IMG/VR virus record: IMGVR_UViG_3300035136_000101
Source of the DNA: a virus
Reading direction: 5' to 3' (one strand)
DNA: 64,000 nucleotides
A program made the translations under genes and the position numbers. This document shows, piece by piece, positions 3,003 to 37,301 of this stretch; the first letter of the stretch is position 1; the number at the start of each line of letters is the position of its first letter. The notes beneath the pieces are model-generated. The model was not told the DNA's origin. It searched no databases and saw only the letters and a list, made by a program, of their open reading frames with translations.

Positions 3003-3018
3003 GCGAACTCGAGTTCGC
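3003..3018. promoter_or_regulatory. 16-bp palindrome GCGAACTCGAGTTCGC (copy 1), 13 nt upstream of the ATG at 3032, followed by AAGAGG
   Basis: perfect palindrome read directly; extended 20-bp palindrome TTGCGAACTCGAGTTCGCAA at 3001-3020. Confidence 0.8.
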
Positions 3019-3662: not shown

Positions 3663-3847
3663 TATTTTTAGACCAAAAATATTTTGTAAAAAAGAAAGGT
3701 TTAAGAAGTAAAATTTGTCCAGATTGTGGTGGTTTTTTTACTAAAACTGAAGATGGATATTTATGTAATTTGTGTGGATTTGAGCTTGATAAAAATGGGA
3801 GTAGTAAATCATATTTTTATGGTGTGATTACTATTGAGAATAAATAA
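3659..3847 (+). CDS. small zinc-ribbon protein
   Basis: CPDCGG ... CNLCG motifs. Confidence 0.4.
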   Translation: MIFLDQKYFVKKKGLRSKICPDCGGFFTKTEDGYLCNLCGFELDKNGSSKSYFYGVITIENK

Positions 3848-3870
3848 TAGATAGGAATATAAGTGTCAAT

Positions 3871-4197
3871 TTGAAATTTAAATGTCTTGTTACTAGGAAA
3901 GAGAAAAAGACTGTTTCTGAAATTTTTTCATTGATTAAAGAACCTTGGTGTGAGGTTGTAGTTGAAATTAAAAAAATGAATATTAGTGTGGTTTCATATT
4001 TTGAGAAAGATGCTGTGGTTTCAAAAATAGATGTTTGGGAAAAGGCAAATACACTAGAAGATTTAATTGATGATATAGAATATTATTCTGGTGAAGTTAT
4101 GCAATTTACTGGAGATGGTGTTTGGTTGAAGTTTGAATTGTCAGAAGATATACTTAGAAGGGTTTTAGAAAAACTTTTGAGGAAAAACTATGGATAG
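3871..4197 (+). CDS. hypothetical protein
   Basis: ORF track. Confidence 0.45.
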   Translation: MKFKCLVTRKEKKTVSEIFSLIKEPWCEVVVEIKKMNISVVSYFEKDAVVSKIDVWEKANTLEDLIDDIEYYSGEVMQFTGDGVWLKFELSEDILRRVLEKLLRKNYG

Positions 4198-7519: not shown

Positions 7520-7820
7520 ATTTGTAATGATGAAAGATGGTTTTTGGAAATGGGATATTGGTGGGTTGAGTTTTTTGATTGGTAGTACAAAAGAAAAAAA
7601 TACATATTTAGCATTATGGGTAACAACTATTTCGATATTGAATTATAGAATGGTTGAAAGAAGAATTGTTGAAGGTAATTATGGATTGGTGTTAAAGAAT
7701 TTAGAGAAAAAAGCAGCAATTCTTTTGGTTAGAAGTAAAGTTAATGGTGGAAAAGATTTTATTGAATATATAAACAAAAGACAAGAGGTAATGGATAGTT
7801 TGATGTGTGTTAGGTATTGA
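7497..7820 (+). CDS. hypothetical protein
   Basis: ORF track. Confidence 0.35.
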   Translation: MMSLVVNRFVMMKDGFWKWDIGGLSFLIGSTKEKNTYLALWVTTISILNYRMVERRIVEGNYGLVLKNLEKKAAILLVRSKVNGGKDFIEYINKRQEVMDSLMCVRY

Positions 7821-7821
7821 T

Positions 7822-8382
7822 ATGAATAAATTGGAAGATATGTCTAAAGCATTTGATTCATTAACTGGTGTTTGTGATAATTGTGGTTATACAGATGATA
7901 ATATAGGTCGAAAAGAATGTTTAATGTGTGGAGCAAAGGCTTATGATGTAAAATTGCATGTTTTGGATAAAGATAGACCCAGTTTTCAAAAAATATATAT
8001 GAATCTTGCGATTGATATTTCTAAACGGTCTACTTGTTCTAGGAGACAAGTAGGTTGTGTAATATCTTCTAGTGATTTTAGAAGGATTCTTGCTGTTGGA
8101 TATAATGGTAATGCTTCTGGGTTGCCCAATAAGTGTGATGCACCAAATGTTTCCTCAGGGTGTGGATGCATTCATGCTGAGGAAAATGCTTGTATTTCTT
8201 GTGTTGAGCCAAGGAGTACAAAGAAAATAGTTTTTGTTACGGTTTTTCCTTGTAAGATGTGTGCAAAAAGATTTGTACAACTTGGTGGGGTTAAGCAAGT
8301 ATATTATTTAGATGATTATCATGGTGAAGAAGCAAAATTTGTTTTTGATATGGCTGGAATTGAGTTTTGTCGTTTGTTGTAA
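7822..8382 (+). CDS. dCMP deaminase (cytidine/deoxycytidylate deaminase family)
   Basis: zinc-binding motifs CIHAEENA and PCKMCAKRFVQLGV; STCSRRQVGCVI...GYNG typical of ComEB/dCMP deaminases. Confidence 0.85.
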   Translation: MNKLEDMSKAFDSLTGVCDNCGYTDDNIGRKECLMCGAKAYDVKLHVLDKDRPSFQKIYMNLAIDISKRSTCSRRQVGCVISSSDFRRILAVGYNGNASGLPNKCDAPNVSSGCGCIHAEENACISCVEPRSTKKIVFVTVFPCKMCAKRFVQLGGVKQVYYLDDYHGEEAKFVFDMAGIEFCRLL

Positions 8383-10307: not shown

Positions 10308-10587
10308 AGATCTTGATAAATGTATAGCAATAATTCGTGAAGTATTTGGTAATCCTAGGATATTGATTGAATCAGTGATTGGTCCAGCAACTCATTATGA
10401 TGATGATCCAGATTATTATATTGAAATGACGCTTTATCCATCAAAGTTTTTGGGTGATATATCAAAAGAAGAATTTAGAAAGAAAAGTTTGAAAGTGTAT
10501 TCTATATTGAGACAAAAAGGATATAGAGATATTTGTGAAAAAGTTGTGATTAGAAAAGGTTGGAGTGGAAAGGAAGATAAAAAATGA
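10282..10587 (+). CDS. hypothetical protein
   Basis: ORF track. Confidence 0.4.
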   Translation: MKRMKEKFKDLDKCIAIIREVFGNPRILIESVIGPATHYDDDPDYYIEMTLYPSKFLGDISKEEFRKKSLKVYSILRQKGYRDICEKVVIRKGWSGKEDKK

Positions 10588-11297
10588 AAATTGTAGAACC
10601 ATCAGTTGAAGTTATATTTTGGGCTCCTGAAGATAGTGGAACATTAGAGGAAGGAATTGAGAAAGCAGCAAGAACTTGTTACAAAAGTGAAGGGAAAATT
10701 GGTGAAGGAACAGCGGATAAACTGATTAGGAAACTCAGAAAAAGTGGTCACCATGCTATGCTTGAATTTGGTTATATAATGGCAAGGATTATTGCGGACC
10801 GAGGTTTGAGTCATGAATTGGTAAGGCATAGATTGGCTTCCTTTGCACAGGAATCGACACGATGGTGCAATTACAATTCTGAAAGATTTGATTCTGAAAT
10901 TTCTGTAATAGAACCTCCAGGATTGACAGAGGAACAGAGAGTCATATGGTCTGTAGCAATGGCTGATGCTGAAAGACATTATATGACTTTGATAAAAATT
11001 GGTGCTAAGCCACAAATAGCTAGGTCGGTTCTTCCGATAGGGTTAAAGACTGAGATTGTTATTGGGGCAAATCCAAGGGAATGGAGGCATATTTTTAAGA
11101 TGAGGTGTGATAAATATGCTCACCCTATAATTAGGAGTATAATGATAGAGATTTTGTTGCAGTGTCGTGATAAATATCCTGCTATTTTTGATGATCTTTT
11201 TGATGATTTGCCTGATGAACTTATAAATAAATGGTCGGAATTAAAAGATAAAACTATGAGAGAAGTGATTATGAAACATGTTGTTGACAAAACATGA
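10584..11297 (+). CDS. thyX: flavin-dependent thymidylate synthase ThyX
   Basis: ThyX signature RHR-x7-S then RW/Y (ELVRHRLASFAQESTRWCNY); HHAMLEFGY upstream. Confidence 0.85.
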   Translation: MKIVEPSVEVIFWAPEDSGTLEEGIEKAARTCYKSEGKIGEGTADKLIRKLRKSGHHAMLEFGYIMARIIADRGLSHELVRHRLASFAQESTRWCNYNSERFDSEISVIEPPGLTEEQRVIWSVAMADAERHYMTLIKIGAKPQIARSVLPIGLKTEIVIGANPREWRHIFKMRCDKYAHPIIRSIMIEILLQCRDKYPAIFDDLFDDLPDELINKWSELKDKTMREVIMKHVVDKT

Positions 11298-15429: not shown

Positions 15430-16155
15430 ATGAATAATTTTATTGTATTTGAAGGTATTGATGGTGTTGGAACTACAACACAATCATATATGATGTATGA
15501 ATATTTAAAAGATTTGATTGGAAAGAATAAAGTTGTATGGACAAAAGAACCAACTGATTCTTGTATCGGATATTTAATACGAGAGATTTTAGGTGGTACA
15601 GAAGAGAAGCCTTCTGGTAATGCCATGGAATTACTGTTTAGAGCGGATAGAATAGACCATGTTGAAGATTTTATAAGACCAAAGATAGAGGAAGGGAAAT
15701 GGGTTATTTGCGATAGATATTATCCTTCAACACTTGTGTATCAAGGAATTCAAAATACTATGTTAGATAGTATAAAGCAGATGAAGCGTATGTTTTATCA
15801 TTTTATTGATAATGATGGAATTGTTATTCCTATTTTAACAATTATTTTAGATGCTGATGTTGATATTTGTCAGAGCAGAATAAAAGATAGAGATACTCAT
15901 CGTGAAATTTATGAAGATATAGAATTTCAATTAAAGGTAAAAGAATTGTATTTAGAGTGGGCTAATGTCGATTGGGATAGAATAGCTGGGGCACATGGTA
16001 AAACTGATGAAATTATTTATCCATGGAATAAAAAAATAGTTGTTGATGCGAACGGAAGTGAAAAAGAAGTTCATGATAGATGTAAAAAAGTATTATGTGA
16101 TGTTTTATCTGATGCTTTAGGTATCGATTGGAACAGTTTAGAAGGTGTAAAATGA
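15430..16155 (+). CDS. tmk: thymidylate kinase
   Basis: P-loop FIVFEGIDGVGTTTQ and DRYYPSTLVYQG (DRY..S..YQG) Tmk motifs. Confidence 0.8.
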   Translation: MNNFIVFEGIDGVGTTTQSYMMYEYLKDLIGKNKVVWTKEPTDSCIGYLIREILGGTEEKPSGNAMELLFRADRIDHVEDFIRPKIEEGKWVICDRYYPSTLVYQGIQNTMLDSIKQMKRMFYHFIDNDGIVIPILTIILDADVDICQSRIKDRDTHREIYEDIEFQLKVKELYLEWANVDWDRIAGAHGKTDEIIYPWNKKIVVDANGSEKEVHDRCKKVLCDVLSDALGIDWNSLEGVK

Positions 16156-26976: not shown

Positions 26977-27597
26977 ATGAAAAGGTTGTTTTTTGTTGGA
27001 TTGTGTGTGATTTTTGTTGGATGTATACCTGATTTTGGTGAAAAAGAAAATAAAGCGCCACGATCAAAATCTGGGGTAAAGGCGGCTAGAGTAAAAGTAA
27101 AAACGAATGAAAAAGGTTTGACGGTTGAACAAGAAAATGTTGGTGCTCGTTTGAAAAATGATAGTGATGGAACATCAATAAAGCATTTGTATCTTGTTTC
27201 TGCATATACAGGAGATGTTCTTGTTTATTCGACTGTGAAGGGGAAAGTAACATCTTCAGGTAAAAGATTGACACCATATACTGTTGCTGCTGGAGCTATT
27301 TCTGATGGTCATGGTAATATAAACCATTATGGAATTCCTATTGTTGTTAATGGGACACAATATAGAACATCAGAGATTCTTCAAGATGATGGGACATATG
27401 GTCATTCAATGGAATATTTGTTTTGGCATGATATAAATGGTGTTTTTAGAAAAACATATGTTACGGGTGGAATAATGCCAATTATTAGTGCTGAACCAAT
27501 GGCTTTTCCAAAAGTTATTTTGAATGTGGATGATTCATGGTCGCCGAAAAAAAATAAGTCAGATGATGCATTATCTTCAAAAAAAAAATCTGAATAA
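26977..27597 (+). CDS. putative lipoprotein
   Basis: signal peptide MKRLFFVGLCVIFVGC with lipobox-like FVGC. Confidence 0.5.
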   Translation: MKRLFFVGLCVIFVGCIPDFGEKENKAPRSKSGVKAARVKVKTNEKGLTVEQENVGARLKNDSDGTSIKHLYLVSAYTGDVLVYSTVKGKVTSSGKRLTPYTVAAGAISDGHGNINHYGIPIVVNGTQYRTSEILQDDGTYGHSMEYLFWHDINGVFRKTYVTGGIMPIISAEPMAFPKVILNVDDSWSPKKNKSDDALSSKKKSE

Positions 27598-27632
27598 AAT
27601 AACTTTTTTCCCACACAAATAGGAGACAAATC

Positions 27633-28613
27633 GTGGATTATAGTAAAGAAGCGATAGATAACACTATCTTGAAGGTTAGAGTAGGATCTCATTTATTTGG
27701 GACAAATACAGAAGATAGTGATTTAGATATTGAAGGTATTTTTATGCCTCCAATATCTGTTTTATATGGTTTAGGGGAATGCAAGGAGGTTGATTTAAGT
27801 GAAGCATCAAAGGATGAAAAGGGTCGGAATACATCTGATGCTATAGATTTTAAATTGAGAGAATACAGGACATTTATGCGATTAGCTATTCAGAATAATC
27901 CTAATATTTTGAATATTGTTTTTTCAAATGATGAAAATGTTATTTTTCAAGACGAATTTGGAGAGCGATTGAGGGGAATGGCAGAGTATTTTCCATATAG
28001 AGATGGGTTAAGAAGGTATTATGGATATGCTCAATCTCAATTGCAGAAAATGACTATTAAGCCAGATAATTATTCTTATTTAAACAAAGCGTTGGATTTT
28101 TTATCTGGATGTAATCAAAAAGCTATTCTTGTTGATGTAATAAGATCAAAATGTAATCCATTGGCTAGAGTGTTTATTGATAAGGGGCCTGGTAAGCATG
28201 TTGTTGTTGCTGATTTGCATTATGAAAGGGGACTTCAAGTAGGAAAAGTTGTATCGATGATTAATGGTAGATTAGAAAGGGCTAGTTCAAGAGCTGATAA
28301 TTGGGAAAGATTTGGATATGATGTGAAATTTGCATCGAATTTGATTCAGATTTTAAAGCAAGGCATAGAGCTTGGTAAGACTGGTGTACTTAAATTTCCA
28401 TTAGGATATAGAGATTTGATTCTTGATATAAAGAAAGGCAAGTTTAAGTTATCTGAGGTTGATAATATGGCTACAGATTTGATTGAAGAAATGATTTCTA
28501 TTATAGAGGGTGAATGTTGTTTGCCAAAGAAGCCTAGAAGGTTGGAAATTGGAAATTTCACTATTATTGAAGTAAAGAAATGGTGTGACAAGCAGTTTGT
28601 TAGTTGTCATTGA
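27633..28613 (+). CDS. nucleotidyltransferase-fold protein (Pol-beta-like minimal NTase)
   Basis: GS-x9-SDLD motif: RVGSHLFGTNTEDSDLDIEG. Confidence 0.55.
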   Translation: MDYSKEAIDNTILKVRVGSHLFGTNTEDSDLDIEGIFMPPISVLYGLGECKEVDLSEASKDEKGRNTSDAIDFKLREYRTFMRLAIQNNPNILNIVFSNDENVIFQDEFGERLRGMAEYFPYRDGLRRYYGYAQSQLQKMTIKPDNYSYLNKALDFLSGCNQKAILVDVIRSKCNPLARVFIDKGPGKHVVVADLHYERGLQVGKVVSMINGRLERASSRADNWERFGYDVKFASNLIQILKQGIELGKTGVLKFPLGYRDLILDIKKGKFKLSEVDNMATDLIEEMISIIEGECCLPKKPRRLEIGNFTIIEVKKWCDKQFVSCH

Positions 28614-28659
28614 TATAATGTTTCACGTGAAATATTAGTGTTATTAAAGAGAATTAATT

Positions 28660-28675
28660 GCGAACTCGAGTTCGT
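28660..28675. promoter_or_regulatory. 16-bp palindrome variant GCGAACTCGAGTTCGT (copy 6), with TTGACA-17-TAAGTA-like promoter just downstream
   Basis: read directly; 71 nt upstream of the ATG at 28746. Confidence 0.7.
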
Positions 28676-28745
28676 TATGATTGTTGACAAAATATTAATT
28701 AAGTGATAAGTATGAAATGATATTGGTATAGATATCAATGGAGTT

Positions 28746-29192
28746 GTGATGGGTAATAAGATTGTGATTTGTCCATATTGTGGAAAGAAGGCTGAATTAA
28801 AAACTGGCAGAGAAATATATTTGGGTAGGGGTTCTTGGGATGGTAAAAAGTTTTGGGTTTGTGAGCCTTGTAATGCTTGGGTTGGGTGTCATGACCGAAA
28901 TAAGAGATATGGGCGTGTTGGTGATGAACCATTAGGTAGACTTGCTAATAAAGAGTTGAGAGAAGCGAAGATGAAAGCTCATTTGGCATTTGACCCTATT
29001 TGGAAAGAGAAAAGTATGAAGCGTAAAGAGGCTTATGCATGGCTTGCTAAGAAGTTAGGAATACCTGCTGAGGAATGTCATATAGGAATGTTTGATGTAG
29101 ACATGTGTAGAGAAGTGGTAATAGTAATGTCTGATTATTCGTTAGTAGTTGCAAATGCAATTTGTGGGCATCAACTTGGGAAATTGGAATAA
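28746..29192 (+). CDS. zinc-finger-containing hypothetical protein
   Basis: CPYCGKK ... CEPCNAWVGCHD. Confidence 0.45.
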   Translation: MMGNKIVICPYCGKKAELKTGREIYLGRGSWDGKKFWVCEPCNAWVGCHDRNKRYGRVGDEPLGRLANKELREAKMKAHLAFDPIWKEKSMKRKEAYAWLAKKLGIPAEECHIGMFDVDMCREVVIVMSDYSLVVANAICGHQLGKLE

Positions 29193-29197
29193 TAAAA

Positions 29198-29410
29198 ATG
29201 TCTAATAATAAATATAGGCTAAATATTGAACTTACAGATCAAGTAATGAAAAGATTGAACAAATTAGTTGTGGAAAGTGATTCAAGTTCTAAGACTGATG
29301 TTATTAGAAAATCGCTTGCTTTATATGAGACAATAATGCGGATTCGAAAAGAAGATGGACAAGTTATATTATTATTAAGAGACGGAAATCAGATGGAATT
29401 GGTATTTTAA
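29198..29410 (+). CDS. ribbon-helix-helix (CopG/Arc-like) small DNA-binding protein
   Basis: YRLNIELTDQVMKRLNKL...KTDVIRKSLALYE beta-strand plus two helices pattern; start at ATG 29198. Confidence 0.4.
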   Translation: MSNNKYRLNIELTDQVMKRLNKLVVESDSSSKTDVIRKSLALYETIMRIRKEDGQVILLLRDGNQMELVF

Positions 29411-29496
29411 ATAGGAGTGTCATATTATGGTGGTTTGACAAGGAAACAACGTAATAAATTAGAGCAGATCTATGATTATTTTTTGGGAGTTTATTA

Positions 29497-29682
29497 ATGG
29501 AAACAAATGAACAATTTTATAATGATATTGATAAAGCAAGAGAAGAAGGAAAGATTAGTTTAACAGAATGGGAGATTGATTTTATTGATTCAATTGGTGA
29601 ACGATTGGATATGGGACGTGATTTATCCAGGAAACAGCGTGAAACGCTGGATAGAATTCATGAAAAAATAAGACCATGGTAG
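29497..29682 (+). CDS. hypothetical protein
   Basis: ORF track. Confidence 0.35.
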   Translation: METNEQFYNDIDKAREEGKISLTEWEIDFIDSIGERLDMGRDLSRKQRETLDRIHEKIRPW

Positions 29683-30161
29683 ATGATAAATATTTAATAG
29701 ATGCAGCTGTTAGAATACTTGCATCTGTTTCTGATAGACACCTTGATGTGATTAAGCTTAATAAAATTCTTTTTTATCTTGATTTGAAATCATTGCTTGA
29801 GTGTAGTGAAACAGTAACTCATAAAGATTTTATTGCAATAAAGCAGGGGCCAGTAATTTTAAATTACAGAAAATGTCTTGTTGATTCTATGAAAGAAAAA
29901 GGTTTGATTGTTGTTGAAGGTGATACGTTAATATTGTTGAACAGGACAGGTTTTGATGGGAAATTTTATTCTGATGAATTTTTATATGTTTTAGACCTTA
30001 GCAATGATGATTCTTTTTGGGATTGGTATAAAGAAAATATTGGTTGGCAGATTGCATATAGAGAGGGATTAGGAAGAGGGAGGAAACCACAATTTATTAA
30101 TATGCATTTGGCTATGCAACAGATAGTTGATGATAATTGGAGGTATGAAAATGTTGAATAG
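29676..30161 (+). CDS. Panacea-domain (SocA/GepA-like) protein
   Basis: DVIKLNKILFYLDLKSL...FIAIKQGPV matches the Panacea pattern (KLQKLLYYAQ ... GPV). Confidence 0.55.
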   Translation: MVDDKYLIDAAVRILASVSDRHLDVIKLNKILFYLDLKSLLECSETVTHKDFIAIKQGPVILNYRKCLVDSMKEKGLIVVEGDTLILLNRTGFDGKFYSDEFLYVLDLSNDDSFWDWYKENIGWQIAYREGLGRGRKPQFINMHLAMQQIVDDNWRYENVE

Positions 30162-30330
30162 AATAAAGAATTTTTTTGGTAGAATTATTTGTATGTGTGT
30201 TGGTTGCAAAATGGATCGTGATGTTTCTATAGTCGAGGAGTGGAAGTGTACTAGGTGTGGATATCATCATGAGAAGATTGATTGGCCAACGGTAGATGTA
30301 AATTATAATCATTTTGATGATGCAAGTTGA
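30151..30330 (+). CDS. small zinc-ribbon protein
   Basis: CMCVGCK ... CTRCGYHHE; start ATG 30151 after ggaggtatg. Confidence 0.35.
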   Translation: MLNRIKNFFGRIICMCVGCKMDRDVSIVEEWKCTRCGYHHEKIDWPTVDVNYNHFDDAS

Positions 30331-30336
30331 GATAAT

Positions 30337-30549
30337 ATGAAACCTATTATAAAAGTAAGTGGTGAAGTTATTACTATTAAAGAGTTGAAGGATTTTGTAA
30401 AAGATTTACCAGAAAAAGATAGTTATACTGGTGATGATTATGAAGTATGGATTGGTAGAGGAAATATATCAAATCCATGTAGACAATTATGGACATTAAA
30501 TAAGAGTGACCGTGGTTGTGATATTTTATTGAGTGATGATGTTGGTTAA
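30337..30549 (+). CDS. hypothetical protein
   Basis: ORF track. Confidence 0.4.
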   Translation: MKPIIKVSGEVITIKELKDFVKDLPEKDSYTGDDYEVWIGRGNISNPCRQLWTLNKSDRGCDILLSDDVG

Positions 30550-30573
30550 AGTAATTATTGGAATAGCAATTAA

Positions 30574-30816
30574 ATGAGTACCGTGAAGATAAAAAATGAT
30601 GCTGATCTAAAAAAAGCTTTTAATCGTCTCGATGAAATTTGGACATCAAAGCCAGGTGAAGAGAACTGGGAAGAACGTTGTGACTTGGTGGACAAGATTG
30701 AACAATATGAGAATTTGACTGTTGATATTTCTCCACCAAATCCGGTTGATGCGATTCTTTTTAGAATGGAGCAAAGTAACCTGCTTTTGAAGGTGATTAA
30801 TAATGAAAAAGAATGA
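30574..30816 (+). CDS. HigA-family antitoxin N-terminal-domain-like protein
   Basis: IKNDADLKKAFNRLDEIW ... PNPVDAILFRMEQ matches the conserved N-terminal extension of HigA-type antitoxins (I.teeey..al.ri.eL ... PDPveaIkFRMeQ). Confidence 0.45.
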   Translation: MSTVKIKNDADLKKAFNRLDEIWTSKPGEENWEERCDLVDKIEQYENLTVDISPPNPVDAILFRMEQSNLLLKVINNEKE

Positions 30817-31051
30817 ATTTGGTAGGCATCTAAATGCTATCCGCATTAGCAAAAATATAAGTCTTGATGAATTAGCAAATGAAACCCAAATAGCTTCATG
30901 GGTTTTATGGCTTTATGAAGAAGGGAGGGAAATTCCTAAAAAACCTAAAGTTCATGCGATAGCAAGAGTATTAGGTTGTGATGCTAGGAATCTTTTGGAT
31001 TCAAGGAAGTATTCATTAGCGGAGAAACGGAGAAATAGTAATGAAATTTGA
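30803..31051 (+). CDS. XRE-family HTH DNA-binding protein
   Basis: helix-turn-helix LNAIRISKNISLDELANETQIASWVLWLYEEG. Confidence 0.5.
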   Translation: MKKNEFGRHLNAIRISKNISLDELANETQIASWVLWLYEEGREIPKKPKVHAIARVLGCDARNLLDSRKYSLAEKRRNSNEI

Positions 31052-31307
31052 GGAGAACAAATCAATAGGGCATAAGGAAGGGGATTTTTTTATTGGTGGA
31101 AAGATGGTAACGGTACCAGTTCCTCAATGGGAGAATACTAAACAGGGTGATGCTATACGTTCTAAAAGAAGAGCAAGTGGTATTACATTGAGAAGAGCTG
31201 CATCTATGATAGGAATAACTGGTACAGAATTGACAGGGTTAGAGATAGGGAAATATAGTATTTCAGAAGATGATTTTGATGATATTATGAGAAAATTGAG
31301 TGAGTAA
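31041..31307 (+). CDS. XRE-family HTH DNA-binding protein
   Basis: IRSKRRASGITLRRAASMIGITGTELTGLEIGK. Confidence 0.5.
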   Translation: MKFEENKSIGHKEGDFFIGGKMVTVPVPQWENTKQGDAIRSKRRASGITLRRAASMIGITGTELTGLEIGKYSISEDDFDDIMRKLSE

Positions 31308-31309
31308 TA

Positions 31310-31591
31310 ATGTTTGATAAATATGATGAAATGATAAAACGTGAAAGGGAAAAATGGCTTTGTGAAAGAAAAAAATGGTATAATAAAATTGAAAAAAATT
31401 TTGAGGTAAAATCATGTAAAGGTTTAGCTAATAAATATTGGTTTATTTTAGCAGCAATATTTTTATCTTTGGTATCTTTGCCTTTTTGGGTTCCTACTAA
31501 TATTTTAAGAATAATAGGTAATGTTTTCCCATTAATTGGATTATGTTATTCATTGTTAGCATTATTATTATTATTTTATAGGAATAGGTGA
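31310..31591 (+). CDS. hypothetical membrane protein
   Basis: two hydrophobic helices (YWFILAAIFLSLVSLPFWV; FPLIGLCYSLLALLLLF). Confidence 0.4.
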   Translation: MFDKYDEMIKREREKWLCERKKWYNKIEKNFEVKSCKGLANKYWFILAAIFLSLVSLPFWVPTNILRIIGNVFPLIGLCYSLLALLLLFYRNR

Positions 31592-33287: not shown

Positions 33288-35057
33288 ATGGCAGATGAAT
33301 TTCCTGATTACTTAAAAGAACCGACAAATATTGGTTATAAATATGGAGATCTTTATTATAGAAAGGGAAGGTTTATTCTGTCTGGCGAACCTGTCATGAT
33401 GGAATTTGCAAAGCGTGTCTTTCCTGGTGCTCAAGTAGGAGGATATAGAAAAACAGGGAAATTATCATTTGGAAGGTCATCTAGAGAAGTTTCAGATCTT
33501 AATTGGATGATGATGAGATTTCCGTTGAATGTGCATTGCAAGGAATACTTAGATAAAGCAAGAGACACTGCGGTTGACAGATGGTTTGGATTAGCAACTG
33601 GAAATAATTTAAAGCCAACCACTCCACCATCTGAGTTTTTAGGGAAGTTATATCCATATCAAGAAGAAGCTGTTACTTTTATGACATCAAATAAAAGAGT
33701 TTTATTAGGAGACAGCATGGGATTGGGTAAAACATGGAGTGCTCTTGGTGCAGTAGCTCAATCTAAGATGTATCCGTGTTTAGTAGTATGTCAGGCACAT
33801 GTTCAATTACAATGGCAAAGAGCTATAGGATCTCTTTTTGATATGGGTAGTGGATATCAGAAGAGTCTTTTTGATACTGATTTTGATATATCAATAAAAA
33901 GAGGAAAATCTTTAGCACCTATATTAAAGGGAAGGACATCATACAGAATTCCAAGATTGCCATTTTCAATAATACATTATGGATTGATTGCATGGTGGGA
34001 AGAAGAATTATTGGCAAATAGATTTAAAACTGTAATTTTTGATGAAATTCAAGAATTACGACATAGTGACACTAAAAAATATTCTACTGCTTCTCTTTTG
34101 TCTGGGGAAGCAGAACACGTTTATGGGTTATCAGGAACTCCAATTTACGGGTATGGTTCAGAGATATGGTCAGTTACAAATGCTGTTGATTTTAATTGCT
34201 TAGGGTCACAGGAGGCATTTGGTAGGGAGTGGTGTGATGGGTATGGGTCTAAGATAGTTTATGATCCAAAGGCATTGCACGGTCATATGGTGCGTGAGGG
34301 ATTACTCCTTAGACGTAAATATGATGATGTAATGCCTGATTTGCCGAAAGTAATAAGAAGAGTTCAAGACCTTGAACAAGATGATGAATTGTATGAACAA
34401 TTAATTGAAACAGCTAAAAGGAGAGCTGATGTTTGGCTTACTTCTTCTTTTACTGAGAAAGGTAGATTAGCAAGAGAGATAGAGGGAGAAACAAGACAAG
34501 CTGCAGGTATAGCAAAAGCAAAATATGTAGCTGAGTTTGTGGCTTCATTGATAGAAGCAGGAGAGAAACCACTTATTTATGCTTGGCATCATGCTGTTCA
34601 TAATATTCTTCGTGAGACATTGGCAAGATATGAACCCAGTTTTATAACTGGAAAACAGACGCAAATACAAAAAGATAGGGCAATACGTAAATTTGTTAAT
34701 GGTGAAAATGATGTTGTTATTTTAAGTTTGAGGTCTGCATCTGGAATAGATGGTCTTCAATATCGTGCAACATGTTGTGTTTTTGCTGAATTAGATTGGA
34801 GTCCGGCAGTTCACGGGCAAAGTGAGACAAGAATTGCAAGAATAGGTGTAGACTCAACAGTGAAAGAAGTTCCTGCTTATTATTGTGTTTCACGAAGCGG
34901 ATTTGATGAAATAATATTAGATGTTTTAGGTGTAAAGAAAGGACAATTTTTAGGATTGATGGGGGATGAACCTGAAGATGAACAAGAGGAATATGTTGCT
35001 TCACAAAGAATAGCTTCGAGAATAAAACTTTTGGTTGAAAAGTTGACAAATGGTTAA
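33288..35057 (+). CDS. SNF2-family DNA helicase/ATPase
   Basis: motif I LLGDSMGLGKT, motif II VIFDEIQELRH, motif VI QSETRIARIG, YPYQEEAV Q-motif-like. Confidence 0.8.
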   Translation: MADEFPDYLKEPTNIGYKYGDLYYRKGRFILSGEPVMMEFAKRVFPGAQVGGYRKTGKLSFGRSSREVSDLNWMMMRFPLNVHCKEYLDKARDTAVDRWFGLATGNNLKPTTPPSEFLGKLYPYQEEAVTFMTSNKRVLLGDSMGLGKTWSALGAVAQSKMYPCLVVCQAHVQLQWQRAIGSLFDMGSGYQKSLFDTDFDISIKRGKSLAPILKGRTSYRIPRLPFSIIHYGLIAWWEEELLANRFKTVIFDEIQELRHSDTKKYSTASLLSGEAEHVYGLSGTPIYGYGSEIWSVTNAVDFNCLGSQEAFGREWCDGYGSKIVYDPKALHGHMVREGLLLRRKYDDVMPDLPKVIRRVQDLEQDDELYEQLIETAKRRADVWLTSSFTEKGRLAREIEGETRQAAGIAKAKYVAEFVASLIEAGEKPLIYAWHHAVHNILRETLARYEPSFITGKQTQIQKDRAIRKFVNGENDVVILSLRSASGIDGLQYRATCCVFAELDWSPAVHGQSETRIARIGVDSTVKEVPAYYCVSRSGFDEIILDVLGVKKGQFLGLMGDEPEDEQEEYVASQRIASRIKLLVEKLTNG

Positions 35058-35447: not shown

Positions 35448-35762
35448 GTGAAGCATTTAATTTTTACTGCAAAATACAACAGATTGATATCTAATAATGA
35501 AATTTTATCTATATTTCATGGTGCTTGTGAAAAAGCTAATGCTCATATTAGACGTTCTATGGAGTATTCTTTTTTCCCTGGTGGTTTTACAGCAATAGTT
35601 ATTTTGGCCGAGAGTCATGCTTCAATTCATACATGGCCAGAAACCGGATTGATAAGGGTTGATTATTTTTCTTGTTCTATGTCTCCCAATTTTGGTGATT
35701 TTATAGATTATTTTAGTGAAAGCGGATTTATTATGAACAAAGTTGATATTTTGGAGAGATGA
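35448..35762 (+). CDS. S-adenosylmethionine decarboxylase-fold (class 1b SpeH-like, pyruvoyl-dependent) decarboxylase
   Basis: AIVILAESHASIHTWPETGLIRVDYFSC matches the AdoMetDC processing and active-site motif (S)ESHxxIHTWPE...VDxFTCG; GTG start. Confidence 0.75.
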   Translation: MKHLIFTAKYNRLISNNEILSIFHGACEKANAHIRRSMEYSFFPGGFTAIVILAESHASIHTWPETGLIRVDYFSCSMSPNFGDFIDYFSESGFIMNKVDILER

Positions 35763-36177: not shown

Positions 36178-36525
36178 GGGGTCGATTTGGTTTCGACATT
36201 TGACTAGATTGATATTATGCATGTTCCGCTTTGGGTGTTCAGCGGATTAAAAAGAATGCTTGAATACAATCGTCAGACATAACGATAGCCAAGTTTGGGC
36301 TGAAGCTGCCTAAACCGTCCAAGTGCTGATTGCCTGTGTAGGTATAAGGGCGTCATTTTTACAGGATAGTGACCATTTTTCATGGGAAATGGTGAGCGAA
36401 AATTACCATGAAGAATTTGTATGTAGTTGTCTATCATTGCATGCAAATTATTTAGATAGACTAAACATGTGAAGATTAATATTGAGATGTCTAAATGGAC
36501 TGGGGTTCGATTCCCCACGACTCCA
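36178..36525 (+). ncRNA. ssrA: tmRNA (SsrA-like)
   Basis: 5' GGGGTCGATTTGGTTTCGAC matches the tmRNA 5' consensus GGGGnnGAUUnnGnUUCGAC; 3' tRNA-like GGACTGGGGTTCGATTCCCCACGACTCCA, acceptor pairs with the 5' end; internal frame ending NDSQVWAEAA-TAA resembles tag peptides (ANDENYALAA). Confidence 0.65.
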
Positions 36526-36532
36526 ACTATAT

Positions 36533-37226: not shown

Positions 37227-37301
37227 CGGGATGTAGCGCAGTCTGGTTAGCGCACTTGATTTGGGGTCAAGGGGTCATAGGTTCGAATCCTATCATTCCG
37301 A
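37227..37301 (+). tRNA. tRNA-Pro (anticodon UGG)
   Basis: full cloverleaf drawn by hand: acceptor CGGGATG/CATTCCG, D-arm GCGC-AGTCTGGTTA-GCGC, anticodon stem CTTGA/TCAAG with loop TTTGGGG, T-arm ATAGG-TTCGAAT-CCTAT; 75 nt. Confidence 0.85.

Follow-up and report, generated by a model that had tools for sequence, protein, structure and literature searches.

T4-like phage genomes contain hyperplastic regions, in which small lineage-specific early open reading frames (ORFs) lie between conserved genes. The subject of this report is a segment of an uncultured virus, positions 27633–30330 of a stretch of IMG/VR virus record IMGVR_UViG_3300035136_000101. The whole stretch analysed, here termed the window, is 64,000 nucleotides (nt), i.e. 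64 kb out of a genome of about 160–170 kb. The first-pass annotation of the segment proposed a toxin-antitoxin (TA) or anti-defence island, in which a protein with a Panacea domain would be the antitoxin of a PanAT pair and its neighbours of 61 and 60 amino acids (aa) the toxins. The segment is probably a group of independent cassettes rather than a PanAT pair. The best overall explanation, to which we assign a probability of roughly 0.55, is that it does not form one system but belongs to a hypervariable accessory region, probably transcribed early, in which single-gene cassettes have come and gone among a few conserved backbone genes. Its orphan antitoxin derivatives may counteract host toxins of the RelE type. 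The genes of the segment and those directly downstream, as well as the gene remnant and the control region described below, are all on the + strand.

PanAT pairs were described by Kurata et al. 2022 and Ernits et al. 2023 (PMC8832971, PMC10440598). The Panacea antitoxin (PanA) is found with dozens of unrelated toxins (PanT), including small peptides, in either gene order, and 78% are toxin-first. In one PanA the conserved histidine that ends helix α5 is required for direct neutralisation, and other PanAs neutralise via appended C-terminal elements (Ernits et al. 2023). Orphan antitoxins have been described as counter-defence in T4-like phages (PMC11825919).

The Panacea (SocA/PanA-like) gene at positions 29676–30161 is predicted to encode a 161 aa protein that lacks both a toxin partner and the C-terminal tail of its relatives. 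Compared alone with PF13274, the protein scores 25.3 bits (cut-off 25.7, E-value = 3.1e-5), the match spanning the N-terminal 43 of the 113 profile positions. A word-indexed protein search returned a single twin of 97% identity, and an exhaustive HMMER search of 1.8 billion representatives returned 140 relatives. All 51 aligned relatives match PF13274 (best E-value 7.4e-15), and all but one of 101 profile matches bear a precomputed PF13274 annotation. These sequences form a conserved family of about 192 aa with the motifs LNKALFYLDL, GPVV, SxxSHxNPGW, IAMQQ and DPW. The AlphaFold2 (AF2) model, built with 79 homologues (pLDDT 88.4, pTM 0.86), displays seven main helices and two hairpins, which corresponds to the compact α1–α7 plus β-hairpin fold. 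The model matches BFVD entries with a probability of 1.0, including one named “Antitoxin SocA-like Panacea domain-containing protein”, and its N-terminal half weakly resembles winged-helix regulators. Foldseek found no significant match in the PDB, sequence and profile searches of the PDB with the family gave nothing useful, and neither fold nor sequence led to a solved Panacea structure. Single-protein and profile scans of IMG/VR were empty, and the subfamily is also absent from 50,697 phage records. Judged by the relatives and the predicted fold, membership in the Panacea family is established, as the first-pass annotation had it.

Scanning one genome per species gave 52 bacterial loci with homologues of this protein, mainly in Planctomycetota, Myxococcota and Sumerlaeota, and 50 of these have enough flanking sequence. 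A same-strand ORF of about 125 aa is located directly downstream of PanA in 45 of the 50, i.e. in L008 (3573–3953), in L010 (about 3663–3878), where it is apparently frameshifted, and in 43 further loci (L013–L062). The source annotation of L008 and L010 shows PanA as solitary and leaves the overlapping ORF uncalled. The conserved core of the ORF is GGKVLKVRWALPGCGKSGGLRL. Of 28 of these ORFs, 20 match Pfam RelE (PF06296) at E ≤ 0.01, although below the cut-off. In the PDB its sequence matches are to HigB-2 toxins only and are non-significant (E-value about 0.3). The bacterial homologues are thus predicted to be antitoxin-first PanA:RelE-like pairs, and the analysis defines, at the sequence level, a PanA-RelE-like pair family in the three phyla named above. 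The RelE-like partner that is conserved next to the bacterial genes is absent from the window, where a hidden Markov model (HMM) of the toxin had no match among the six-frame ORFs of the 64 kb (best E-value 2.3).

These comparisons show the phage Panacea protein as a diverged, phage-adapted derivative of bacterial PanA with no such RelE-like toxin in the window. Of the 36 positions with at least 85% conservation in the bacterial family, it retains 26. The nucleotide composition of the gene is fully phage-like (GC 0.31, skew 0.45), therefore the capture is old. The C-terminus ends exactly at the ribosome-binding site and start codon of the next gene, ZnR59, which fits a capture in which the antitoxin gene was cut within its 3′ part. 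An intact ORF is seen in more than 10 variants, which display few substitutions and a ratio of nonsynonymous to synonymous substitution (dN/dS) of 0.23–0.48. In one relative, L081, the protein has an 11 aa insertion, DGRDYYIYGGR.

The evidence on the proposed toxins comes from the relatives of the phage, about a dozen phage variants obtained from context look-ups and a metagenome scan. The p61 gene (29497–29682) encodes an acidic 61 aa protein and its stop codon overlaps the Panacea start by 7 nt. ZnR59 (30151–30330) encodes a 59 aa CxxC...CxxC zinc ribbon; the gene follows a GGAGG and shares its first 11 nt with the end of the Panacea gene. Both are backbone genes and are present in all relatives. 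In L083, the most distant relative, there is no Panacea gene and the p61 stop overlaps the ZnR59 start, at a junction of CCATGGTAGA followed by AAAAATAAAAAGATTTTTTGG. Panacea is thus a single-gene indel with clean boundaries, located between p61 and ZnR59. Both neighbours are intact in L083 and display a dN/dS of 0.16 (p61) and 0.19 (ZnR59) over a dS of 0.6–1.0; the proposed toxins therefore exist without Panacea.

Properties of the two proteins themselves likewise do not favor a toxin role. Neither has a transmembrane segment, and neither matches a toxin family in Pfam, PADLOC or NCBIfam; for p61 there is no match of any kind in these or in PHROG. The p61 protein has a pI of 4.8 and its AF2 model (pLDDT 85) displays three helices, for which Foldseek found no significant match in the PDB. 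A p61 profile search found homologues in this phage lineage only, to which the metagenome scan added three near-identical loci. A paralogue of p61, described below, never adjoins a Panacea gene. The 61 aa ORF is a real gene, as its dN/dS indicates, however the PanT role that the first-pass annotation offered for it and for its zinc ribbon counterpart is not borne out: the usual partner is RelE-like and missing from the window, and L083 keeps both neighbours where Panacea is absent.

Gene content varies gene by gene among the relatives. The NTase gene (encoding a nucleotidyltransferase), p61, ZnR59 and HTH88 (an HTH gene) are intact in all of them, and the backbone genes as a group have a dN/dS of 0.16–0.32 relative to L083. 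Panacea and p80, a gene described below, are missing in L083, which has an extra zf-FCS protein in place of p80. DUF3268, RHH, the 65 aa paralogue of p61, p70 and p80 have been gained or lost independently. What had been taken for an island is thus a collection of independent cassettes. An accessory, counter-defence flavour of the region can be retained from the first reading, but not the notion of one TA system, as the genes come and go separately. The divergence between close relatives is mosaic: the NTase is 99% identical to that of L081 while p61 is 85% identical, and compared with L001 and L084, DUF3268 is 86–87% and the NTase 96–97% identical. This pattern points to frequent recombination in the region.

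A second antitoxin-like sequence is found at p80 (30574–30816), a variable cassette whose product is homologous to about 75 residues at the N-terminus of a HigA-type antitoxin. It matches the N-terminus of the PADLOC profile PD-Lambda-2_B (E-value = 3e-11), and a tblastn search pointed to Stx phages; it has 39% identity over 67 aa to residues 9–75 of the HigA of an Stx1a phage (pairwise E-value = 2e-11). The Stx-phage HigA has a chain length of 218 aa with the helix-turn-helix (HTH) at residues 67–118, and a 95 aa HigB toxin (PF09907, E-value = 4.5e-30) is encoded just upstream of it. p80 ends before the HTH, and no HigB is found in the 64 kb window. It thus resembles a fragment and is not a complete HigA, which would combine the N-domain with an XRE-type HTH next to HigB. 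A PDB search with p80 gave nothing useful. According to the alignments, p80 corresponds to the N-terminal part of HigA and has no HigB partner in the window. The possibility that p80 and the adjacent HTH82 gene represent one frameshifted higA was considered and rejected: HTH82 is a complete XRE domain with no detectable relation to the HigA HTH (E-value 8.8), and it persists in L083 in the absence of p80.

The NTase gene at positions 27633–28613 encodes a predicted 326 aa Pol-beta enzyme of the RlaP family, similar to T4 NrdC.11. A 2025 preprint assigned T4 NrdC.11 to this family; Pseudomonas RlaP extends RNA 3′-OH ends by 1–2 nucleoside monophosphates and favours damaged RNA, and the biochemistry of the family is known for Pseudomonas enzymes only (PMC12776372). 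The window protein matches PF10127 (RlaP) with 59 bits (cut-off 23, E-value = 7.7e-16) and phrog_388 with an E-value of 4e-47 over residues 4–309. At residues 18–32 it displays the catalytic signature GSHLFGTNTEDSDLD, a GS...DxD form of the Pol-beta motif hG[GS]x9-13Dx[DE]. The profile match above the cut-off and the motif together place it in RlaP. A tblastn search found full-length homologues of about 27% identity in 1,676 records of phages, for the most part T4-like ones of Escherichia, Klebsiella and Aeromonas, where they are labelled nucleotidyltransferase or in some cases NrdC.11. A single-protein scan of IMG/VR gave no match, and a PDB sequence search matched no solved chain. The gene is found in every relative whose contig reaches it, with a dN/dS of 0.21 relative to L083. 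Taken with the family assignment, this presence in every relative makes it a phage backbone gene and not half of a TA pair. A role as a TA-type MNT or CD-NTase is not supported, in view of the RlaP/NrdC.11 assignment and of its conservation in all relatives and in T4-like phages. Of the earlier description as a minimal nucleotidyltransferase, the Pol-beta assignment holds but “minimal” does not, as the protein is 326 aa long.

Two orphan antitoxin derivatives, the Panacea protein and p80, would be made early in infection in the explanation that we favor. They would bind, or otherwise keep silent, host mRNA-cleaving toxins of the RelE superfamily that would abort the infection, in a manner analogous to that of T4 Dmd against RnlA/LsoA or of the DarG-like AdfN against DarT. 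The RlaP enzyme would add 1–2 nt to damaged RNA 3′ ends and so take part in RNA or tRNA repair after ribotoxin attack. The DUF3268, RHH, p61, ZnR59, p70 and HTH proteins would be independent small early proteins that may bind DNA or zinc. Actual neutralisation of host toxins by the orphans is a tentative part of this explanation, to which we give somewhat less than even odds.

Several observations weigh against this explanation. The phage Panacea protein is only 28–39% identical to the bacterial antitoxins. It displays the changes S115W, S118Y and H119K in the SxxSH motif, which is 97–100% conserved, as well as P85L, and lacks 34 commonly occupied alignment columns, including a C-terminal tail of about 19 residues. 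K119 is at the end of predicted helix 5 and may correspond to the histidine of the protein of Ernits et al. Because the tail and conserved residues have been lost, the protein may no longer bind a RelE-like toxin, and the strongest objection to a simple antitoxin activity lies here. The bacterial partner itself scores below the Pfam cut-off for RelE, and the search for the RelE-like toxin covered 64 kb of the ~160–170 kb genome. A Pfam scan of 60 window proteins found no RNA ligase, RtcB or Pnkp to accompany the RlaP enzyme. The absence of Panacea is seen in one relative only, L083, and may reflect either an insertion or a deletion. L083 also makes toxicity of p61 or ZnR59 less likely without strictly excluding it, as a lytic phage might cope with a toxin that is not neutralised.

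That last point leaves some room for a genuine phage PanAT module, with Panacea as antitoxin and the translationally coupled ZnR59 or p61 as a small PanT. The wide range of toxins and gene orders described for PanAT pairs would accommodate such a module, both genes overlap the Panacea ORF, and ZnR59 is at the position of the toxin in the bacterial homologues. However, in L083 p61 and ZnR59 are coupled to each other and under constraint with no Panacea present, the paralogue of p61 is never beside a Panacea gene, neither protein has a membrane-spanning segment or a toxin-family match, and the usual partner of the subfamily is RelE-like. No independent conserved pairing was seen either, the homologues of p61 being confined to this lineage and those of ZnR59 elsewhere not having been searched for. 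We regard such a module as very unlikely. More improbable still is an arrangement with the NTase as core of a defence or TA module, MNT-HEPN-like or CD-NTase/CBASS-like, and the downstream small genes as its partners. Its GS...DxD signature and the antitoxin-like RHH and HTH folds nearby would agree with this, but PF10127 and phrog_388 match at full length, the NTase has no PADLOC match, its neighbours have none to an MNT-HEPN or CD-NTase (CBASS) system, and the flanking genes show neither HEPN nor effector domains. In addition a conserved promoter-like region separates the NTase from the downstream genes, which vary while the NTase is constant, and the same family is present across 1,676 phage genomes. 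This arrangement is already largely refuted.

A more serious competitor, although still on the unlikely side, is that the Panacea and HigA N-domain derivatives have been repurposed without toxin neutralisation (as a decoy or sponge for whatever triggers the Panacea “sensor” domain, a SocA-like protease adaptor or a small regulator), after a capture long ago, or are decaying relics. The loss of the tail and of SxxSH together with the phage-like composition suggests long residence and divergence; Ernits et al. propose that the Panacea core is sensory when appended elements neutralise; the N-terminal half of the model is weakly winged-helix-like; and both genes are dispensable in some relatives. 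Decay is harder to reconcile with an ORF that is intact and constrained in more than 10 variants and keeps 26 of the 36 core positions conserved in the family. The proximity of two independent orphans, both derived from antitoxins of one toxin superfamily, also suits a shared anti-toxin purpose better than chance. A more elaborate scheme, which we consider rather improbable, joins the Panacea core, p80, the RlaP enzyme and the phage transfer-messenger RNA (tmRNA) in a coordinated toolkit against ribosome-dependent, mRNA-cleaving toxins of the RelE/HigB type. In a further version of this scheme, Panacea without its His motif and tail would act, rather than as a classical antitoxin, as a sensor decoy that blocks triggering of host PanAT. 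On balance a hypervariable early region with orphan antitoxin derivatives directed at host RelE-type toxins appears to account best for these data.

Two of the variable cassettes are located between the NTase and p61. The gene at positions 28746–29192 encodes a DUF3268 zinc-finger protein of 147/148 aa that matches nearly the whole PF11672 profile (137 bits, E-value = 4.8e-40) and phrog_1934 (E-value = 7e-48). Homologues are present in 15 unrelated IMG/VR viral contigs, with no neighbours in common with the window. The next gene (29198–29410) encodes a 70 aa RHH (CopG-like) protein, which matches PF01402 marginally (21.9 bits, cut-off 20.5, E-value = 1.6e-4) and phrog_8557 (E-value = 1.4e-9). 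Both genes are missing in L080 and L089, and RHH alone is also missing in L083. In L001 (728–1357), L002 (5–292) and L084 (4357–4983) the two are fused in frame to one ORF of 208–209 aa, which corresponds to the region 29140–29200 of the window. This is due to a short deletion in these close relatives. The unfused C-terminus, which the distant relative L083 also has, is probably ancestral.

The sequence between RHH and p61 is not true intergenic DNA. Positions 29417–29494 are the 3′ remnant of a deleted 65 aa paralogue of p61, with 88% identity to residues 40–65 of the 65 aa protein of L002 (tblastn). The full-length paralogue (65/77 aa) is present in L002, L084, L088 and L083, and the window has the remnant only. 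A TTGACA sequence at 29435 is within the remnant and is thereby explained.

Downstream of ZnR59, p70 (30337–30549) encodes a 70 aa acidic protein with no family match in profile scans. It is a variable cassette that L080, L089, L087 and L002 lack; the L083 copy is 68% identical. HTH82 (30803–31051, 82 aa) and HTH88 (31041–31307, 88 aa) are backbone genes for XRE-type HTH proteins with HTH_31, HTH_19 and HTH_3 matches. HTH82 is present in all relatives but disrupted in L084. Relative to L083 the two genes have a dN/dS of 0.25 and 0.32, respectively. The first-pass annotation had thus recognized the Zn-finger and RHH proteins correctly, and the two tiny ORFs that it listed after the Panacea gene are the conserved 59 aa zinc ribbon and the conserved 70 aa ORF.

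A spacer of 132 nt separates the NTase and DUF3268 genes and contains a conserved control region (28619–28712) with palindromes, a −35 and an extended −10 sequence. The palindrome TTTCACGTGAAA is at 28621–28632 and the 16 nt palindrome GCGAACTCGAGTTCGT, copy 6 of 12 in the window, is at 28660–28675. A −35 sequence TTGACA follows at 28684–28689, then 17 nt, and TG-n-TAAGTA, the TG-extended −10 TAAGTA being at 28707–28712 (TATATT in L083). Copy 6 and the TTGACA had both been pointed out in the first-pass annotation and are present as described. The spacer is kept in L083, L080, L081 and L084 despite a dS of 0.7–1.1 in the flanking genes. A simple promoter scan gave no score to the TTGACA element at 28684, however A-rich elements of the type TTGACAAA + 16–17 nt + TAnAAT are found at six further intergenic sites, which makes a promoter reading of 28684–28712 reasonable. 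The full set is at 1066, 11284, 19964, 25168, 28684, 35043 and 35825, and these recurrent elements are candidate early promoters of the phage. In L080 the promoter-like element is directly 5′ of the p65 remnant; the DUF3268-RHH cassette therefore sits between the promoter and the p65/p61 genes.

The 16 nt palindrome is found in 12 copies in the window as against 0.05 expected by chance, at 3003, 8869, 13533, 20291, 25800, 28660, 32723, 40033, 44786, 51846, 61073 and 63186. The family has the sequence GCGAACTCGAGTTCGC/T with an XhoI core, and most copies precede a Shine-Dalgarno sequence and ATG by 3–15 nt. In a diverged relative the copy at 28660 is unchanged. The palindrome could form an intercistronic RNA hairpin (6 bp stem, UCGA loop) or be a protein-binding site. 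A local inverted-repeat scan found nothing further of note, and a local scan for tandem repeats found none that point to a type III (ToxI-like) antitoxin. An Rfam scan of 27400–31400 found neither the “DUF3268 RNA motif” nor any other family.

The structural genes of the window include T4-like markers, namely Portal_T4 (E-value = 4e-63), the Gp23 major capsid protein (E-value = 5e-65) and a prohead protease, and they identify an uncultured T4-like phage, of about 160–170 kb, as the source. Metagenomic contigs of 158–173 kb contain the same sequence. A DNA search of INPHARED with a 6 kb region returned a single 123 nt match, which is at chance level. The G+C content is about 33% across the window, the GC skew, (G−C)/(G+C), is between +0.19 and +0.60 in all 1 kb bins of positions 1–64000, and the + strand carries virtually all ORFs of at least 100 aa. 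The coding strand of the phage is unusually C-depleted.

Several further features of the window were observed. A phage tmRNA is located at 36178–36528 (Rfam RF00023, 109 bits, E-value = 7.5e-42), with VRHNDSQVWAEAA as the tag peptide given by ARAGORN; it could rescue ribosomes stalled on mRNAs cleaved by RelE-type toxins. A tRNA-Pro(UGG) is at 37227–37301. The 884 aa protein encoded at 21203–23857 displays a major-vault-protein shoulder domain (PF11978, E-value = 3.6e-24) and a weak Vault_3 repeat, which is unusual for a phage. A 60 aa protein (26754–26936) has the prepilin-type N-terminal methylation motif KRGFTLVELMVVL (PF07963, E-value = 1.3e-8), and its gene is tandemly duplicated in L083 (2034–2357). 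The next gene (26977–27597) starts with a lipoprotein-like signal, MKRLFFVGLCVIFVGC. The SNF2-family helicase at 33288–35057 has 589 aa in the window, and its counterpart in L080 (8514 onward) has 1,040 aa with an intein that contains a LAGLIDADG endonuclease. Nucleotide metabolism is represented by a dCMP deaminase, ThyX and a thymidylate kinase, and an AdoMet-decarboxylase-like 104 aa protein and a 410 aa DUF6745 protein are also encoded; the coordinates for these genes are 7807–8382, 10584–11297, 15430–16155, 35448–35762 and 1143–2375.

Compared with known systems, the Panacea protein is most readily related to PanAT. The 161 aa protein is in the Panacea family by sequence and predicted fold, and its bacterial relatives form overlapping antitoxin-toxin pairs, in two of which (the loci examined, L008 and L010) the RelE-like partner was uncalled in the source annotation. 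The phage copy differs in that it lacks the toxin, the C-terminal tail and SxxSH, and its flanking genes persist without it. The NTase shares with RlaP and T4 NrdC.11 a score above the Pfam cut-off, the GS...DxD signature, a full-length PHROG match and a T4-like phage setting. It differs from them in its identity of only about 27% to homologues of cultured phages, and the scan of 60 window proteins gave it neither an RNA ligase nor a Pnkp as neighbour. With HigBA of lambdoid and Stx phages and with PD-Lambda-2, p80 shares a match to the first 75 residues of a HigA whose partner is a bona fide HigB, but it has neither the HTH nor HigB, and HTH82 next to it shows no detectable relation to the HTH of HigA.

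The hyperplastic regions of T4 are similar to the window in their runs of small ORFs and in gene content that varies among close relatives. The window differs in that its genes are on one strand, the GC skew is extreme and a 16 nt palindrome is repeated. Should the orphans be inactive, the segment would be no more than a hyperplastic region of the ordinary T4-like kind. The closest parallels for active orphans are T4 Dmd and AdfN (PMC11825919). Here too a toxin-less antitoxin-type gene is located in a variable region of a T4-like genome, and like AdfN it was apparently co-opted from the antitoxin of a bacterial TA system. AdfN however is an enzyme (a type IV antitoxin), whereas the candidates in the window are homologues of protein-binding type II antitoxins, i.e. 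PanA and the HigA N-domain. Dmd is without a bacterial homologue and the window Panacea protein has bacterial homologues; it is also without key residues of its family, and its antitoxin activity is a prediction only. Counter-defence by orphan antitoxins has so far been shown for the enzymatic DarG-like AdfN and for Dmd. If the orphans described here do act on host toxins, the principle would be extended to protein-binding type II antitoxins, the largest class of TA defences, in a lytic T4-like phage, and the two proteins would represent natural minimal toxin-binding or decoy modules.

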